This document shows, piece by piece, positions 665 through 50,055 of a stretch of DNA of 64,000 bases. Under the pieces are notes generated by a model, which was not told the DNA's origin, did not search any database, and was given only the letters and a program-made list of their open reading frames with translations. Within the stretch, counting starts at the first letter, position 1. Every line of letters begins with the position of its first letter. Source of the DNA: a virus. Lineage: Duplodnaviria > Caudoviricetes. The translations under genes and the position numbers were made by a program. The stretch is taken from the IMG/VR virus record IMGVR_UViG_3300025316_001101; one strand, written 5' to 3'.

Positions 665-749
665 CAGCCGGATGCTCTACCATTGAGCCACACTGGAATG
701 AATAAAAAAGCTCCAGCGGAAGGACTCGAACCTTCAACTGTCCGGTTAA
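665..749 (-). tRNA. Circularly permuted tRNA-Asn(GTT): 3' half (749-711) precedes 5' half (697-665)
   Basis: Halves complement each other: acceptor TCCAGTG/CGCTGGA+G73, anticodon stem TCCGG/CCGGA, loop CTG|TTAA; 13-nt spacer CTTTTTTATTCAT. Confidence 0.7.
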
Positions 750-750
750 G

Positions 751-23577: not shown

Positions 23578-23582
23578 ATAAG

Positions 23583-23675
23583 TGGTGGGGGCTGGGATCG
23601 AACCAGCGATCTTCAGGTTATTCTAGGGCTTGTCTGAGCCAAGAGCCTGACGAGATGCCTCTTCTCCACCCCACG
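23583..23675 (-). tRNA. tRNA-fMet(CAT) with 21-nt insertion in the anticodon (34/35)
   Basis: fMet-like body CGTGGGG/CCCCACC (C1-C72 mismatch), TCAGG/CCTGA; loop CTC[21 nt]ATAA. Confidence 0.7.
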
Positions 23676-28223: not shown

Positions 28224-29737
28224 GTCAATTACCCCTCCCACAAGGGGAGGGGCTTGGGATTTGTCAAACTAATGTTTTAACTAATCGCTTAGAAGAAGTT
28301 TGACGAATTGCTTCAATCCTTATTCTTCTCGGTGTATTGACGACACCACTATTGAGTTGAGTAATTAAACTCTTCCCTTTACCTTCTTTTAACATTATAC
28401 CCAATGCTCCATTTACATCTGCATTAAGCACTATTCCTGTTGATGACTTAAATAATCCTCTTGGGTATCTTTTTCCCATATATTCATCATGATGACACAT
28501 TACTTCACCAGCAAGATGATCGCATTTACTTGTGTATGCTTCTTCCCTTGCTTTGAAACTAATACCATTTAACATTAGTTTTGATTTTAGTTTTTGAACA
28601 AACTTAGCAAAAGGAAGATTTACGAAGTTTTGGTTGTTCTTATCGCCGTGATTAACACCATTTTGTGCCATCCATCCTTCGCCAATTACCACATTACCAA
28701 CATCATTATTCAAACAATATTGAAGAATGAAATTAGAATAATTATTTAAGTAATCATTGATTTGTCGCCCTCGTCTTGCTCCAAGCCAACGAATACGCTT
28801 ACTGCTTTTCTTTCCTTGCTTTTCAAGTATTGATTGTAATTCTGCTTTTGTTTTGTTATATAATCTGTTTAGTGATTTAAGTTCCCGACCATCCATAATG
28901 AATGAGCGTCCAGATTTTTCATCAAGACAAGTAGCAAAATTATTTACACCAATGTCAATACTTAGACAATTCTTTCCTTCACTTGCTTTCGGTTCTTCTA
29001 CTTCATACACATATTCAATCTCAAAGTATTCAGCATCTAATTTGGGAATAATGCGTATTTCTTTAATTTTATGTTTTTTAATACATTCGGGTATTAGATA
29101 TTTGAATTCTTTGAGTCTGTATTTGCTTTTGAGAGTTGGTGTAATCCTAACTTTGATTTCAGTTTTCCATAATCCTTTATTGTTTGGAAGAATGAATGGA
29201 AAATATCCATCCTTGTCCAAGTATCCAGGTATTTTAACTTCTCCTACATAATGACCCAATCTCTTACTTCGTAATAATCCAAAGAATGAAGCGTATGCTC
29301 TATCAACCATCATCATTGACTGCTGACTTGCTAATGTTGGCATTGATTTGTATGAATGATGGTTTTTAACTGAATGATATGCTGTTGCGTAAGTCAGGCG
29401 TTCTCCACACTTAAAAAAATGTTGTCGCATTGCGTAAAGAGTGCTGTTGTAAACATCCTTACTTTTACGGCACATTGACTTCAAGAAGTAATGTTCTTTT
29501 TGCGTTAGACCTTTGAGTTTGTTTTTCAATACAAGTAGCATACTAAATTATATAGTATGCTAAGTTTATTTTTTCATAACTTTTTCAAAATAATTTTCAT
29601 TATGCGGGCTTACATCCCCCACCACAAGGGTTTGACCTAGTTCGCATTTTCGTTCGCTACGCTCACTCAACGCTCACAGGTCAAACATTCCTGCGGAATG
29701 TGGAGGTTTTCGCCCGCTTTCTATAAACCAATAGCGT
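28224..29737 (-). mobile_element. Non-autonomous IS200/IS605-family (tnpB-only) element
   Basis: Subterminal hairpins (TTTGACC..GGTCAAA left; CCCCTCCCC-TTGT-GGGAGGGG right); TTGAC at both junctions; no tnpA. Confidence 0.8.
28264..29541 (-). CDS. tnpB: TnpB RNA-guided endonuclease
   Basis: RuvC motifs SIDIGVNN, VIGE, NADVNGA; IS-like ends. Confidence 0.9.
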   Translation of the reverse strand: MLLVLKNKLKGLTQKEHYFLKSMCRKSKDVYNSTLYAMRQHFFKCGERLTYATAYHSVKNHHSYKSMPTLASQQSMMMVDRAYASFFGLLRSKRLGHYVGEVKIPGYLDKDGYFPFILPNNKGLWKTEIKVRITPTLKSKYRLKEFKYLIPECIKKHKIKEIRIIPKLDAEYFEIEYVYEVEEPKASEGKNCLSIDIGVNNFATCLDEKSGRSFIMDGRELKSLNRLYNKTKAELQSILEKQGKKSSKRIRWLGARRGRQINDYLNNYSNFILQYCLNNDVGNVVIGEGWMAQNGVNHGDKNNQNFVNLPFAKFVQKLKSKLMLNGISFKAREEAYTSKCDHLAGEVMCHHDEYMGKRYPRGLFKSSTGIVLNADVNGALGIMLKEGKGKSLITQLNSGVVNTPRRIRIEAIRQTSSKRLVKTLV

Positions 29738-32883: not shown

Positions 32884-32966
32884 AACTTCACTCCTGTGTG
32901 TTTGGTAGCCATTAGGATTATACGGAGAAAATCCGAAAAGTCAATGGCCATGATGATCAAAAAAAA

Positions 32967-33037
32967 TGCGGCCGACAAGGATATGGGGTAGTCTTTACGT
33001 CTTTACTTGATGTAGACCACTCCTGCATTCGGCCGCA
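32967..33037 (-). ncRNA. Y-RNA-like unit A (stem-closed)
   Basis: GCGGCC-GAATGCAGGAGTGGTCTACATC...CTTGTC-GGCCGC. Confidence 0.7.
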
Positions 33038-33132
33038 ATACTGCTGCGTGGTAGACCTTTGATGGACCTTGCATCTATCCCATTGGATACGCCATCAGAG
33101 GTGGCCACTCCCACCCTATGGTGGTTATATTT

Positions 33133-33192
33133 TGGCTCGACAAAGAGTGACAAGTCTTTGTTATTGATGTAGACCAGTCGGCATTCGAGCCA
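33133..33192 (-). ncRNA. Y-RNA-like unit B
   Basis: TGGCTC-GAATGCCGACTGGTCTACATC...TTTGTC-GAGCCA. Confidence 0.7.
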
Positions 33193-33205
33193 TTTGTATT
33201 TACTG

Positions 33206-33333
33206 TTTTGGATTTTAATCTTACCAGACAAAAATCGTAAAGTCTATTGTACTGGGAACATTTAACCCAGTATCTCCGATTGATGGTGGGGATGTAAACC
33301 TTACAAGCATTCTGGTAAGATTGAAATCCAAAA
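33206..33333 (-). ncRNA. Y-RNA-like unit C (long stem)
   Basis: ~22-bp closing stem, GAATGCTTGTAAGGTTTACATC...TTTGTC. Confidence 0.65.
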
Positions 33334-33340
33334 TAAAAAG

Positions 33341-33500
33341 TGTGGGTGCCGGGAATTTCACCCAGACCAACGATTTGAAAATGTAGTCCCATCCTGCATT
33401 CGATCTAAACATTCTTTTGCAAGAACATTTGGATTGACAAGGGACGGCGAGACGAACAGCCTTTCGGCATTCGCTGTGCTGATGTTACACTACACCCACA
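33341..33500 (-). ncRNA. YrlA-like tRNA-mimic Y RNA (unit D)
   Basis: Acceptor GTGGGTG/CACCCAC, D and T arms; anticodon arm replaced by CCTTGTC...GAATGCAGGATGGGACTACAT. Confidence 0.75.
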
Positions 33501-33522
33501 TAAATTTTCAAAAAACAAAAAA

Positions 33523-33597
33523 TAGAAACCTGACAAGAAAACGGCGTAGTCATTTTCATTAATAGTGATGTAGACCACTCCTGCATTCAGGTTTCTA
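33523..33597 (-). ncRNA. Y-RNA-like unit E
   Basis: TAGAAACCT-GAATGCAGGAGTGGTCTACATC...CTTGTC-AGGTTTCTA. Confidence 0.7.
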
Positions 33598-33599
33598 AG

Positions 33600-33768
33600 T
33601 GTCGAGGCCAGGAGTCGCACCTGGACTGGTACTTCCAAAAAGTAAATGTAGTCCCATCCTGCATTCAATCTAAACATTCTTTTGCAAGAATATTTAGATA
33701 GACAAGGGGCGGCGAGACGAACAGCCACCTTGCGGTGGCAAACCGTGCTTCTAAACACTCCCTCGACA
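33600..33768 (-). ncRNA. YrlA-like tRNA-mimic Y RNA (unit F)
   Basis: Acceptor TGTCGAGG/CCTCGACA, T arm CCAGG-TGCGACT-CCTGG; core nearly identical to unit D. Confidence 0.75.
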
Positions 33769-33790
33769 ATAAAATTTCAAAGATCAAAAA

Positions 33791-33870
33791 TCAAAATTAA
33801 AACCAGACAAGGGTTCGATAGTCGTCATTTTTCCGATGTAGACCATCTGGCATTCTGGTTTTAATTTTGA
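33791..33870 (-). ncRNA. Y-RNA-like unit G
   Basis: TCAAAATTAAAACCA-GAATGCCAGATGGTCTACATC...CCCTTGTC-TGGTTTTAATTTTGA. Confidence 0.7.
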
Positions 33871-33935
33871 GTCCGACAAGGGTTCGATAGTCGTCACGTT
33901 TTTGATAATGTAGACCATCTGGCATTCGGACTCAA
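33867..33935 (-). ncRNA. Y-RNA-like unit H
   Basis: TTGAGTCC-GAATGCCAGATGGTCTACAT...CCCTTGTC-GGACTCAA; core duplicated from unit G. Confidence 0.7.
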
Positions 33936-33936
33936 G

Positions 33937-34065
33937 AGTTGAAGATGGGATTTGCACCCATAACCTACTGGTTGGATGTAGTTCCAACTACATTTGGGTT
34001 TTAAGGCCCAACAAGGAACGCTGAAACGTTTTGCCGGTCGCTCTATCTAATTGAGCTACTTCAAC
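33937..34065 (-). ncRNA. YrlA-like tRNA-mimic Y RNA (unit I)
   Basis: Acceptor GTTGAAG/CTTCAAC, D arm, T arm ATGGG-TGCAAAT-CCCAT; insert CCTTGTTGGG..CCCAAATGTAGTTGGAACTACAT. Confidence 0.75.
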
Positions 34066-34224
34066 TTATTGTGTAGACCCGCTTCTAATTCCTTTCGGAA
34101 CTAGCCTACCCTATAGGCCGTCCACACACAGGTTGCCAAGTTATCCCCAGTTCTTGGCTGTAAATTGCTGGGGCAATGTACTCTTGATCGCCCGGCCCTG
34201 CGGCCGGGCGATCCCACACTTTAT

Positions 34225-35934
34225 TTACTCGGCTGCCGATTCCTCGACAACTTCTTCTACAACCGGAGCCGCCGAAGCGTCGTCCAGGCTGACATTTTCA
34301 ATCACCTTGACCCAGTGATCCGCATCGTCGCCGCCTTCCATGAATCCGGCAATAACCTGGAACACTTGATCACTGAAGCCACCCACCTGGAGGATGTCCT
34401 GGTGCTGCTTCACTTGGCTGCTTCCCCTCGGGGTGAGGTCGATACAAACCAACTTTGCCCGTGGATTACGCTTCTTGAACGTCTGCCACTCGGTCATCAA
34501 GCCAGTTGCATTACCATAGGCATAACTGTAACCGCTGTCAACCCAACTTTCGTTGTCGCTGATGAAGACTACAAGGTCGCCCTTTGCCTTCTTTGCATTC
34601 AGTTCTGCCAATGGCAAGCTGCAATTCGTTCCACCACCACCATAACGAGCCAACTTTTGCGCATTCGTCATGATGCTGTCCCTCGAATTCAAGTCGTGCT
34701 TGTAGGTTCGAGTGTCGAACGGAATTACATTTGCCTGCTCGTTAGTACGCAACATGGTCACAGCGAACAGGGCCGCTACGTCCACGCACGAAACCGCCGA
34801 AGATGCACCCATTCGGTATCCCGTTGCCGGGCTACTCATTGAGCCTGAAGTATCGACGCAGACATACATTTCGCCGGAAATCTTCGGCACATTTTGTACC
34901 GCAATTTCCATTGCGTCCTGCAACGCCAAACTAATCTGAGTCGGTACGCCAGTCGCCGCCTTGAAAGCCATCAGCAGTTGGTACGGGAATACCCGTGCCC
35001 GCTCAATTTGCTTCTTGTCACGGAGACGTTCAGCAATAATCTGAACCAATTCCGGGTCACTCAATACGTCGTGTCGCTGGAAGGTGTTCAAATTCATTCT
35101 CGTCATCTGCCACGGGGCAGTACGAGCAATTTGCTTCCACTCGGCTGGGCCGATGCCCAACGAGTCCAACATACGGAAATCAACCCTCGGCACAGTGCCT
35201 TCCTTGGTCCGCTTGTAATTTTCGTAATCCTGCACCAACTGCGGAAGCAGGCTATAATCATGTTCGTAGCAAACGCCTTGAGCGTTTACATATACTTCGC
35301 CATTCTTAGCCAAAGTTACGAGCTTACCGTTGCGAACTTCCGCACCCTTGAGGTATGCGAACATCGCAGCCTTAGCTTCACTGGACGGACGTGGCCGTGC
35401 CATACGAAGAATGTCACGCATGGTCGGATCGTTACCGATAGACGCCTTGAACAAAGCTTCGCCGTTCATACGGTCGAACCAATCACGGATTGCGTGCTTG
35501 ATCGCCCACGAAGTCATATTGATCGGCTTACCGGTGATGGCACCACTACGGCCCATCTGAATAAAGTTTCGCAGCATCTTACCATTGTCGATTACTCGAC
35601 GGAAGACCTTACGGAACAACTTCGGATCGATCTGCGACAATACAACCGTCAAGAACGCTGGCATGTCCTTCATGTATGCCTTGTCACGGCAATAGACCGC
35701 AGTCTTCGCCAGGAACAACGGATCGTCAATCAATGCTTGCGCAGCATCCTTGGCAATCTTTAGATTGTCTTCGGCAGATACGTAGTAAGTGCCGTTGAAG
35801 CAGTTAGTCGCTGCAATTTGAGCCAGCGCATGCTTCGAGGAAAATGAATACGCCTTGCCACCAGCCGCATTAACGGTATCCGCTACCGGTGCAATCGGGG
35901 TACGCTGAGACGCAAAAAGGTTCTTGTTAGCCAT
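34225..35934 (-). CDS. rsr: Ro60 / TROVE-domain RNA-binding protein with VWA domain
   Basis: VNAAGGKAY, MKDMPAFL, MTRMNLNTF, ARVFPYQL, VCVDTSGSM, GGGTNCS, FISDNESW. Confidence 0.92.
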   Translation of the reverse strand: MANKNLFASQRTPIAPVADTVNAAGGKAYSFSSKHALAQIAATNCFNGTYYVSAEDNLKIAKDAAQALIDDPLFLAKTAVYCRDKAYMKDMPAFLTVVLSQIDPKLFRKVFRRVIDNGKMLRNFIQMGRSGAITGKPINMTSWAIKHAIRDWFDRMNGEALFKASIGNDPTMRDILRMARPRPSSEAKAAMFAYLKGAEVRNGKLVTLAKNGEVYVNAQGVCYEHDYSLLPQLVQDYENYKRTKEGTVPRVDFRMLDSLGIGPAEWKQIARTAPWQMTRMNLNTFQRHDVLSDPELVQIIAERLRDKKQIERARVFPYQLLMAFKAATGVPTQISLALQDAMEIAVQNVPKISGEMYVCVDTSGSMSSPATGYRMGASSAVSCVDVAALFAVTMLRTNEQANVIPFDTRTYKHDLNSRDSIMTNAQKLARYGGGGTNCSLPLAELNAKKAKGDLVVFISDNESWVDSGYSYAYGNATGLMTEWQTFKKRNPRAKLVCIDLTPRGSSQVKQHQDILQVGGFSDQVFQVIAGFMEGGDDADHWVKVIENVSLDDASAAPVVEEVVEESAAE

Positions 35935-48738: not shown

Positions 48739-50055
48739 ATGAGTTGTAATATATCTGCCAAATTGCACTTCAGGAGATTCCTAATGGAAATGGAAACGAC
48801 CCCAGATCAGAAGGACCGCATTCGAACCATCATACAAAAGCTTATGGCTGATGATAAAAATTGGTTCAATCAGCAAGAAATCGCAGTCGGAAACAAAGGT
48901 CCGTACTGGGTGCTGAACTATATGCAGGGCTCCCGCAATGAATATAATCAACTTGTCCGTGGTATGATTATTCGTAAGCCAAATGGACAAACTATTAATG
49001 ATCCACTCGACCTGATTGTTAGCTTCCCATTTATGCGGTTCTACAATAAAGGCGAAAAAGAAGCTGCCCCTGTTGATTTTTCAAAAGCAGACATGCTAGA
49101 AAAACTAGATGGGTCAATGGTGGGAGTGTTTTTCCCAGATGGCGATCCCTCTAAGCCACAATACCATACTAGAAAAATGGTATCTGCCCATAAACCCGAC
49201 ATGGATATGATGATTGGCGGCTTTGAAACAGCCAAATCCGGCCCACAGCCATTCATGAAAATCATCGGAGAATACGTGAATAAACTACACTTCACTAAAG
49301 AAGATGTAGCTATGACCTATGTTTTTGAATTTATCCATGAAATTAGCAAGGTTCTAACCAGCTACTCGCCAGAAAAATATGGATTACACCTATTAGGTGC
49401 AAGAAACATACGCACTCACCGTGAATTAACAGAAGATCAATTAGATGTAATAGCTCGTAGAATAGGTGCCCCACGTCCACGTCGTTGGAATACTACTGGC
49501 GACGAGGCAGAAATCCGTCAAATGATGGATGAAATTGGCAAAGATACCGAAAACTTTGAAGGGGCTGTGTTCCGAGACCCGGAAGGCAACCGAGTGAAAC
49601 TAAAACGTGATGATTATGTCAAGCTACACCATTTGCTTGACAAACTATCCTTCAAACATTTAATCCCCAAGGTCTTGGAAGGGGAATCCGAGGAAATCAC
49701 TGCTTACTTCCCATCAGCCAAAAAAACCATTGAAACTTTCCAAAAAGCATTTGACGATTATATCGACAAAGCAGTAGTGGCTGTACGTAAATATCATGAT
49801 CAGAAATTAGATCGTAAAACCCTAGCCATGAAGATATTTCATGGAACTGGGGAAGATCTAGACCAGTACATGCGATCCCTGGTGATGAAACATTACGAAA
49901 ATGGTGATGAAGATTCCGTCCGACAAATAATCACAAGAGATCTTAAAACGGTTGCCCTCGGTCGAAATGGCGTTGGCGGCAGTCCACAAAGATTAATGGA
50001 AATTATTGGTATCCATGATGACGAATCGGACGAGAAACAAGACAAAGAGCCTTAA
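48739..50055 (+). CDS. T4 Rnl1-like ATP-dependent RNA ligase
   Basis: PFMRFYN, EKLDGS (motif I), FEF, EGAV, KLK; start ambiguous (TTG ~48762 or ATG 48784). Confidence 0.8.
   Translation: MSCNISAKLHFRRFLMEMETTPDQKDRIRTIIQKLMADDKNWFNQQEIAVGNKGPYWVLNYMQGSRNEYNQLVRGMIIRKPNGQTINDPLDLIVSFPFMRFYNKGEKEAAPVDFSKADMLEKLDGSMVGVFFPDGDPSKPQYHTRKMVSAHKPDMDMMIGGFETAKSGPQPFMKIIGEYVNKLHFTKEDVAMTYVFEFIHEISKVLTSYSPEKYGLHLLGARNIRTHRELTEDQLDVIARRIGAPRPRRWNTTGDEAEIRQMMDEIGKDTENFEGAVFRDPEGNRVKLKRDDYVKLHHLLDKLSFKHLIPKVLEGESEEITAYFPSAKKTIETFQKAFDDYIDKAVVAVRKYHDQKLDRKTLAMKIFHGTGEDLDQYMRSLVMKHYENGDEDSVRQIITRDLKTVALGRNGVGGSPQRLMEIIGIHDDESDEKQDKEP

Follow-up and report, generated by a model that had tools for sequence, protein, structure and literature searches.

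Transfer RNA (tRNA) genes whose two halves are encoded in permuted order reportedly occur in Cyanidioschyzon merolae, in other algae and in the archaeon Thermofilum pendens (findings said to be those of Soma et al. in 2007 and Chan et al. in 2011), and to our knowledge no organisms besides a few algae and a single archaeon have them. We know of no bacterium that has bulge-helix-bulge (BHB) splicing machinery or its endonuclease. Here we analyze a candidate permuted tRNA-Asn gene, wedged between a tRNA-Lys and a tRNA-Arg gene, in DNA of a virus (Duplodnaviria; Caudoviricetes; IMG/VR record IMGVR_UViG_3300025316_001101). The whole stretch analyzed, which we call the window, is 64,000 nucleotides long; it is the minus strand of C1:99025-163024 in a 259-kb virus record that originates from freshwater and lake metagenomes and has an estimated completeness of about 50%. 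A full-text literature search found no report of a permuted tRNA gene in a bacterium or a phage.

Several other described systems resemble parts of this one. In Nanoarchaeum equitans tRNA halves are separate genes that carry complementary leaders and a BHB, and in phage T4 the ligase Rnl1 together with Pnkp repairs the anticodon loop of tRNA-Lys after cleavage by PrrC; 2C5U and 5TT6 are presumably structures of this T4 repair system. RNase P cleaves the YrlA RNA of M. smegmatis, whose acceptor stem is 7 bp long, and CCA is added to it (Chen et al. 2014, PMC4201824), and Lak megaphages have "enigmatic" introns in the anticodon region of their tRNAs that belong to no known self-splicing class (Devoto et al. 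2019, PMC6784885). We present evidence below that the phage element is a selected, permuted tRNA-Asn fold and that its halves are probably joined into a real tRNA-Asn.

Anatomy and setting of the permuted gene

A preliminary description of the locus had placed a tRNA-Asn(GUU) here with its halves in swapped order, a U1-A72 pair, G73, the loop CUG/UUAA and a break between positions 34 and 35. All of this is confirmed, and on a minus-strand reading the limits it gave for the halves and the linker, as well as the abutment of the element on a tRNA at either end, are exact (Table 1). The 3' half lies 5' of the 5' half on one strand, 13 nt apart, in one transcription unit as predicted from promoter and terminator motifs. 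When the 85 nt are folded alone, the permuted cloverleaf is the minimum-energy structure (-25.6 kcal/mol), with the acceptor end closed by a loop and the anticodon end open; the folding z-score (-1.62) does not by itself reach significance. A strict permuted-cloverleaf descriptor applied to both strands of the 259-kb genome returned only the element and one AT-rich false match. ARAGORN finds nothing in the native order and reports tRNA-Asn(gtt) when the halves are re-joined in silico. The re-joined sequence aligns without gaps to tRNA-Asn genes from several bacterial phyla (56-59 of 72 positions identical) and has in common with them U1-A72, C2-G71, C3-G70, G73, the D arm, the CUGUUAA loop and the T loop. 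To judge from the sequence, the positions of the tertiary pairs are in order (U8-A14, A15-U48, G18/G19 with U55/C56, C13-G22-G46, U54-A58 and G53-C61) and the Asn identity set of GUU, G73 and U1-A72 is complete.

Misassembly is excluded, since DNA contigs from four independent lake metagenome runs (three studies) each bridge tRNA-Lys, the 3' half, the linker, the 5' half and tRNA-Arg with 0-1 differences. These runs are nearly identical at the locus, so that population variation supplies no covariation, and their remaining partial matches are ordinary bacterial tRNA-Asn genes. No RNA run was listed as containing the locus; six sequencing runs (four on record as RNA and two presumed to be RNA) had just 0.08 of words shared and are silent on expression. 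The 259-kb record holds 48 tRNA genes and a tmRNA; at its completeness of about 50%, it yielded no conventional tRNA-Asn.

The permuted gene lies inside what is predicted to be a single transcription unit, which starts at a sigma-70-type promoter and is closed by an intrinsic terminator. Its leader open reading frame (ORF), together with the strong terminator that follows, looks like the leader-peptide attenuator of a tRNA operon. The related contig L321 (described below) keeps both the promoter and the leader peptide, as MT(R/S)KQRNNQKP, at positions 121-209. Leader codons 4-10 (AAG, CAA, CGG, AAU, AAU, CAG and AAG) match anticodons of the cluster, GUU included.

The boundaries of the element can be compared with the processing signals of the phage's other tRNA genes. 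The base after the discriminator is C in 43 of the 48 genes, and the next base is U in 47; C74 is encoded in most tRNA genes of the phage, and the remainder of CCA is not. On these counts we read C750 as the encoded C74 of tRNA-Lys, which argues against an alternative first entertained for this base, namely that it belongs to the Asn loop and gives either CUU or a loop of 8 nt. U749 is then the usual first trailer base doubling as U35, and the step from C to U at the end of tRNA-Lys coincides with the step from C74 to U35. The acceptor end carries the trailer and leader signals of ordinary tRNAs (G73 followed by CUU, and, as in most leaders, U at -1 before U1), so the linker should be processed as any spacer is. 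Under the base composition of the phage's leaders and trailers, CUG before tRNA-Arg has a chance of about 0.002 and UUAA after C74 one of about 0.06, and the two are jointly expected at about 1e-4. The remark in the preliminary description that no BHB is evident was borne out: the flanks form nothing better than an 8 x 3 internal loop, and their pairing is lost in both related lineages.

Table 1. Features of the locus, its relatives and other elements mentioned in the text. Positions are those of the window unless a contig is named; a slash within a sequence marks the break.
Feature	Position	Strand	Details
tRNA-Lys(CUU)	823-751	minus	Rfam tRNA 60.9 bits; ARAGORN
C after the tRNA-Lys discriminator	750	minus	read as encoded C74 of tRNA-Lys, outside the Asn loop
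tRNA-Asn 3' half	749-711	minus	UUAA-CCGGA-CAGUU-GAAGG-UUCGAGU-CCUUC-CGCUGGA-G; U35 U36 A37 A38, anticodon-stem 3' strand, variable loop, T arm, acceptor 3' strand, G73
Linker	710-698	minus	CUUUUUUAUUCAU; 13 nt, AU-rich, closes the acceptor stem
tRNA-Asn 5' half	697-665	minus	UCCAGUG-UG-GCUC-AAUGGUA-GAGC-A-UCCGG-CUG; U1 to G34: acceptor 5' strand, D arm, anticodon-stem 5' strand, C32 U33 G34
tRNA-Arg(CCG)	664-590	minus	Rfam tRNA 71.1 bits
Sigma-70-type promoter of the tRNA cluster (predicted)	1951-1924	minus	12/12 hexamer matches
Leader ORF	1899-1864	minus	11 codons, MTRKQRNNQKP
Attenuator-like terminator	1803-1771	minus	strong, after the leader ORF
Intrinsic terminator closing the cluster (predicted)	422-393	minus
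T4 Rnl1 (gp63)-type RNA ligase	48739-50055	plus	full-length; candidate sealing enzyme
L321 permuted tRNA-Asn, 3' half			C/UUAA-CCGCU-CGGUU-GCAGG-UUCAAAU-CCUGC-GGGGAGA-G, then linker CAUUAUAAUCAA
L321 permuted tRNA-Asn, 5' half			UCUCCUC-UA-GCUC-AACGGUA-GAGC-A-AGCGG-CUG/
L322 permuted tRNA-Asn, 3' half	L322:1676-1772 (both halves)	plus	C-UUUUAAGAAA-GUUAA-UCAAG-UGGUU-GCAGG-UUCAAGU-CCUGC-GGGGUGA-G, then 15-nt linker
L322 permuted tRNA-Asn, 5' half		plus	after the linker: UCACCUC-UA-GCUC-AAUGGUA-GAGC-G-CUUGA-CU/
L321 permuted tRNA-Gln(UUG), 3' half	L321:2654-2739 (both halves)	plus	tRNA-Asn ...G73-C74/UGAA-UCCGU-...-UCGACCA-G, then 15-nt linker
L321 permuted tRNA-Gln(UUG), 5' half		plus	UGGUCGA-UG-GUGU-AAUGGUA-GCAC-A-ACGGA-CUU/, then tRNA-Gln(CUG)
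Insert-bearing tRNA gene, window	23582-23675	minus
Insert-bearing tRNA genes, 259-kb record	C1:5204-5312, 209999-210094, 226755-226850
Insert-bearing tRNA gene, L321	L321:2319-2414
tRNA-Asn-like gene with D-arm insert	1009-1136	minus	conserved at L321 2167-2295 and L322 1213-1340
86-nt tRNA with anticodon GUU	499-584	minus	Rfam tRNA-Sec 31.9 bits, below threshold
Ro60 gene, then about nine Y-like RNAs sharing a handle	32960-35934	minus	Ro60 at 34228-35934; TROVE + vWA (vWA_Ro60)
Modules A and B of L087	L087:2291-2372, 2458-2525	reverse
Modules of L241 and L260	L241:2902-2983; L260:9401-9481
TnpB-like protein	28267-29541	minus	OrfB_IS605 + Cas12f1-like TNB domain

Conservation and covariation in related phages

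Relatives were reached through a 64-aa ORF inside the tRNA cluster. Its homologue P0021 (75% identical) lies on ENA contig L321 and its homologue P0020 (98% identical) on contig L322, whose cluster sequence is identical in four assemblies (L322, L324, L325 and L326). Both lineages have the same operon, with a permuted element wedged between the same tRNA-Lys and tRNA-Arg; conservation of the permutation in related phages, which had been named in advance as a check on the gene, was thus found in both.

We counted covariation on a three-way alignment of the window element, L321 and L322, in which 21 cloverleaf pairs in three sequences make 63 cells. All 63 cells are paired, with no one-sided change and no mismatch, and both sides have changed in 9 of the 21 pairs, of which four belong to the anticodon stem (5 pairs), four to the acceptor stem (7 pairs) and one to the T stem. 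The helices that covary most are the two formed between the halves, the acceptor and anticodon stems, where 8 of 12 pairs covary and none is broken. None of 500 shuffles reached the observed covariation values, and slid registers gave at most 3 double-change pairs. The linker has diverged in the relatives (12 and 15 nt vs 13 nt) and the acceptor stems of the neighbours have also changed among the three lineages; the seven anticodon-loop letters, C32 U33 G34 and U35 U36 A37 A38, are identical in all three. We regard it as close to certain that the element is a selected, permuted tRNA-Asn fold.

Other search routes led to no additional lineage. DNA similarity search of the INPHARED phages gave generic tRNA matches only and no relative; T-loop plus D-loop pattern scans of IMG/VR and of JGI metagenomes, as well as a scan for closely spaced D arms, returned tandem tRNAs and many Y-like modules and no homologue. 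The route through a neighboring 723-aa protein led to relatives without tRNAs nearby, that through an upstream 150-aa protein led to homologues in non-syntenic contexts (of these L317 has a Leu/Ser array only), and that through a 57-aa ORF led to the L322 lineage again and nothing further.

Probable joining of the halves and competing explanations

One indication that the ends are joined comes from L322, in which the break lies at 33/34, with ...CU closing the 3' end and GUUAA at the 5' side. G34, which sits at the 3' end in the window element, is found at the 5' end here; it has been retained, and all seven loop letters are kept. Retention of G34 across the shifted break would be pointless unless the seven letters become contiguous, which argues that the ends are joined. 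L321 carries, in addition, a second and unrelated permuted tRNA, a tRNA-Gln(UUG) that is likewise split at 34/35 and is wedged between a tRNA-Asn (ending G73-C74) and tRNA-Gln(CUG). It has a perfect descriptor score, is called tRNA-Gln(ttg) by ARAGORN after in-silico joining, and has the identity elements U1-A72, G2-C71, G3-C70 and G73. Position 35 is U in both permuted tRNAs, Asn and Gln, as expected from the N73-C-U trailer that nearly all tRNA genes of the phage have. We put the probability that the permuted halves are matured by joining into a real tRNA-Asn at roughly 60%.

The proposed route is as follows. The operon would be transcribed as a single RNA from the promoter to the terminator of Table 1. 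RNase P would cut at the 5' end of tRNA-Arg and leave G34 with a 3'-OH, and the endonuclease acting on the 3' end of tRNA-Lys would cut after the encoded C74, as for the phage's other tRNAs, and leave U35 with a 5'-phosphate. The freed 85-nt piece would fold as a cloverleaf whose sole gap is G34/U35, and an RNA ligase for 3'-OH and 5'-phosphate ends would seal that gap, so that the anticodon-loop region would read ...AUCCGGCUG-UUAACCGGA.... RNase P and 3' trimming would take off the AU-rich linker before CCA is completed; sealing and linker removal could occur in either order. The fragment upstream of an RNase P cut ends in a 3'-OH, the one downstream of an RNase E or RNase Z cut starts with a 5'-phosphate, and these are the ends that Rnl1 joins without healing.

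The most likely sealing enzyme would be the phage's own T4 Rnl1 homologue. An Rnl1-type ligase had been named at this place in the preliminary description, and the assignment is upheld by three comparisons: T4 Rnl1 structure 2C5U (E 1.7e-10, residues 68-351, with KLDGS aligned to KEDGS at the KxDG motif), phrog_562 (E 1.2e-41, positions 5-359 of 377) and Pfam T4_Rnl1_C, the C-terminal tRNA-specificity domain. No RtcB, CCA-adding enzyme or Pnkp phosphatase was found in the 259-kb record, which is about half complete, and two kinase-only proteins are its sole Pnkp-related matches. We would give even odds that the phage Rnl1 is the joining enzyme.

A second kind of interrupted tRNA gene may call for a similar reaction. 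Several tRNAs of the phage and of L321 have 21-23-nt inserts in the anticodon loop, most of which consist of a 4-5-bp hairpin with the loop CAGUCA, AAGUCA or CAGACA followed by an A/U-rich tail. Comparison of a tRNA-Lys of L321 with its otherwise identical intact counterpart at L322:1602-1675 shows that the insert lies precisely between U33 and C34. At 21-23 nt the inserts are too short for any self-splicing class known to us, group I introns being hundreds of bases long; they too imply cutting and rejoining beside the wobble base. Tentatively, and as a proposal that we hold somewhat less probable than its converse, these freshwater jumbo phages may build some of their tRNAs, both permuted (Asn, Gln) and hairpin-insert, from rearranged genes that are all completed by an Rnl1-type ligase.

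Other unusual tRNA genes were noted during this work. The insert-bearing tRNA at C1:226755 would give the anticodon CUA (an amber suppressor). One tRNA-Asn-like gene of the window (U1-A72, G73, intact CUGUUAA loop) has a D-arm insert of about 55 nt that holds a miniature Ro-handle, CCCUUGGCG-GCAA-CGCAUGCAG...GGAACUACAU. An 86-nt tRNA with GUU, U1-A72 and G73 has a 6-bp D stem, a 4-nt loop and a long variable arm, so that Asn identity marks sit on a body of selenocysteine- or allo-tRNA type. Finally, in IMG/VR records L283-L295, giant-virus bins included, a related tRNA, either full-length or with an insert, is immediately preceded by an isolated tRNA 5' half (acceptor strand, D arm, anticodon-stem strand and UCUUAUG).

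Several points weigh against joining. The site of the tRNA-Lys 3' cut, like every other RNA step including joining itself, is read from genes and not from RNA, and a loop of 8 nt would result if the cut fell directly after A73. The tRNA-Lys C74 and G34 of L322 are separated by a 10-nt spacer, UUUUAAGAAA, which starts with UUUU and would demand precise trimming by no known activity; the stretch from C74 to G34 could form a 4-bp mini-hairpin. Because the 259-kb record is only about 50% complete, an ordinary tRNA-Asn may sit elsewhere in the phage genome. The L321 and L322 contigs, at 7-9 kb, are too short to reveal a link to Rnl1. Modules in unrelated phages lack a 7-nt loop or give odd anticodons: modules A and B of L087 fill gaps between tRNAs and have tails that cannot form a 7-nt loop, and those of L241 and L260, which also fill inter-tRNA gaps, form 7-nt loops after joining, with the odd anticodons AGG and AUG in the L241/L260/L315 family. 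Neither Ro60 nor Rnl1 was matched in six records with wedged or tRNA-adjacent modules (two complete genomes and three incomplete ones), and the Rnl1 blank is weak, the Rnl1 control having given no match. The L087 tails and the module records that match neither protein indicate that not every such module is a decoder. The arrays of L241, L260 and L315 have N73-C followed by A-rich sequence.

The inferred cut site, the L322 spacer and the non-decoding modules elsewhere make one rival serious, although we consider it unlikely. It holds that processing of the neighbors frees a tRNA-shaped noncoding RNA that is never joined, a nicked tRNA-Asn mimic that would act as decoy, sensor or inhibitor, in one variant toward an anticodon nuclease or asparaginyl-tRNA synthetase (AsnRS), with the acceptor loop perhaps cut and CCA added. 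Permuted tRNA-like modules are common in phages and mostly are not decoders, M. smegmatis YrlA with its 7-bp acceptor stem receives just such an RNase P cut and CCA (PMC4201824), the L087 wedge modules do without an anticodon-sized loop, and the L322 spacer is more tolerable if nothing is joined. A mimic that stays nicked, however, leaves unexplained why the seven loop letters are invariant while the stems covary, why G34 is kept despite a break that shifts by one, and why a Gln tRNA has its break at this very position and keeps its loop intact; the identity sets of both Asn and Gln are, moreover, complete.

We at first favored a YrlA-type Y RNA, in which the 3' end of tRNA-Lys and the 5' end of tRNA-Arg would form the Ro-binding stem. 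Rfam YrlA (RF02553) matches 643-772 with 32.8 bits (E 7.8e-5), the phage encodes both Ro60 and a Y-like RNA array, the order of T arm, loop-closed acceptor stem and D arm is that of such RNAs, and in the window genome 7 bp could form between the flanks CGAGGGC and GCCCUUG. Nevertheless, the match is far from the Rfam gathering threshold of 69, and the handle GAAUGC ... GGNCUACAU ... (C/U)UUGUC, present in about 11 RNAs of the phage, is absent from the element. The element lies about 33 kb from rsr rather than beside it, both flanks are high-scoring genuine tRNAs, and the flank pairing and the likeness to CCCUUGU are lost in the relatives, where tRNA-Arg starts GAGAUCG (L321) and CAAGUCG (L322). 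With the handle missing, the flanks bona fide tRNAs and their pairing not conserved, we rejected this explanation, which is now very improbable. Two of the Y-like RNAs of the Ro60 array (33937-34065, for example) are tRNA-like in normal order with the handle as an insert, and further handle-bearing RNAs occur at genome positions 206822 and 217041.

The weakest explanation, a nonfunctional remnant that tandem duplication of tRNA-Asn and later deletion or recombination left behind in an array prone to rearrangement, would suit a linker that resembles an ordinary inter-tRNA spacer and the homing endonuclease genes that adjoin the cluster, but it is removed by covariation concentrated in the helices that join the two halves (three diverged lineages with nine compensatory pairs and none broken, the opposite of the lack of conservation and inter-half compensation by which the preliminary description would have known decayed debris), by an L322 form identical in four assemblies, and by conserved loop letters and a second permuted tRNA of the same design, and we give it hardly any credence. 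The window also encodes a TnpB-like protein (Table 1).

Implications and comparison with known systems

Should joining take place, a bacterial virus would have arrived at the permuted-gene architecture by means other than BHB splicing. The ends of the permuted gene would be set by RNase P and the 3' nuclease of the abutting tRNAs, the neighbor tRNAs in effect guiding the cutting, and a T4 Rnl1-type "repair" ligase would gain a constitutive substrate and become a biosynthetic tRNA ligase. Lys, Gln, Arg and Asn tRNAs are typical targets of anticodon nucleases; maturation of these tRNAs would be phage-dependent, and a leader peptide of exactly these codons would tune their supply. The proposal would then bear on the non-standard building of phage tRNAs and on their possible protection from host anticodon nucleases. 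Since tRNA finders miss permuted genes, the counts in phage tRNA inventories are too low. The test system would be compact, with about 250 nt of operon and one ligase gene that can be cloned.

The architecture of the phage element is that of C. merolae and T. pendens, and the end-making route and the role for Rnl1 are what we propose as new. In the algal and archaeal genes, as here, the 3' half precedes the 5' half in one transcript, a linker across the acceptor ends calls for excision by RNase P and a 3' nuclease, and the termini need ligation, probably via a circular intermediate. Those genes use a BHB, a splicing endonuclease and an RtcB-type ligase, and their break positions vary; the phage element, viral and bacterial unlike them, has no BHB, and its ends would come from processing of the abutting tRNAs and would suit an ATP-dependent Rnl1-type ligase. 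In N. equitans the tRNA halves are likewise parted in or close to the anticodon loop, and they are united post-transcriptionally, as would be the case here; the phage element, by contrast, is one transcript in permuted order without leader pairing. With YrlA and the other Y RNAs (RF02553) it shares the permuted order, and the phage itself encodes Ro60 and Y RNAs; it differs from YrlA in that it lacks the Ro handle, opens in the anticodon loop, has full Asn identity and is bounded by tRNAs. The introns of Lak phages are comparable to the 21-23-nt inserts of the window phage, but they are insertions in colinear genes, and no permuted gene was reported there (PMC6784885). The T4 system, finally, likewise has a phage Rnl1-family ligase and a break beside the wobble base of a folded tRNA, and its tRNA-specificity domain is also present here; in T4 the reaction is a repair that includes end healing, whereas in the phage element the ends would be ready for ligation without healing, and the reaction would serve tRNA biosynthesis.
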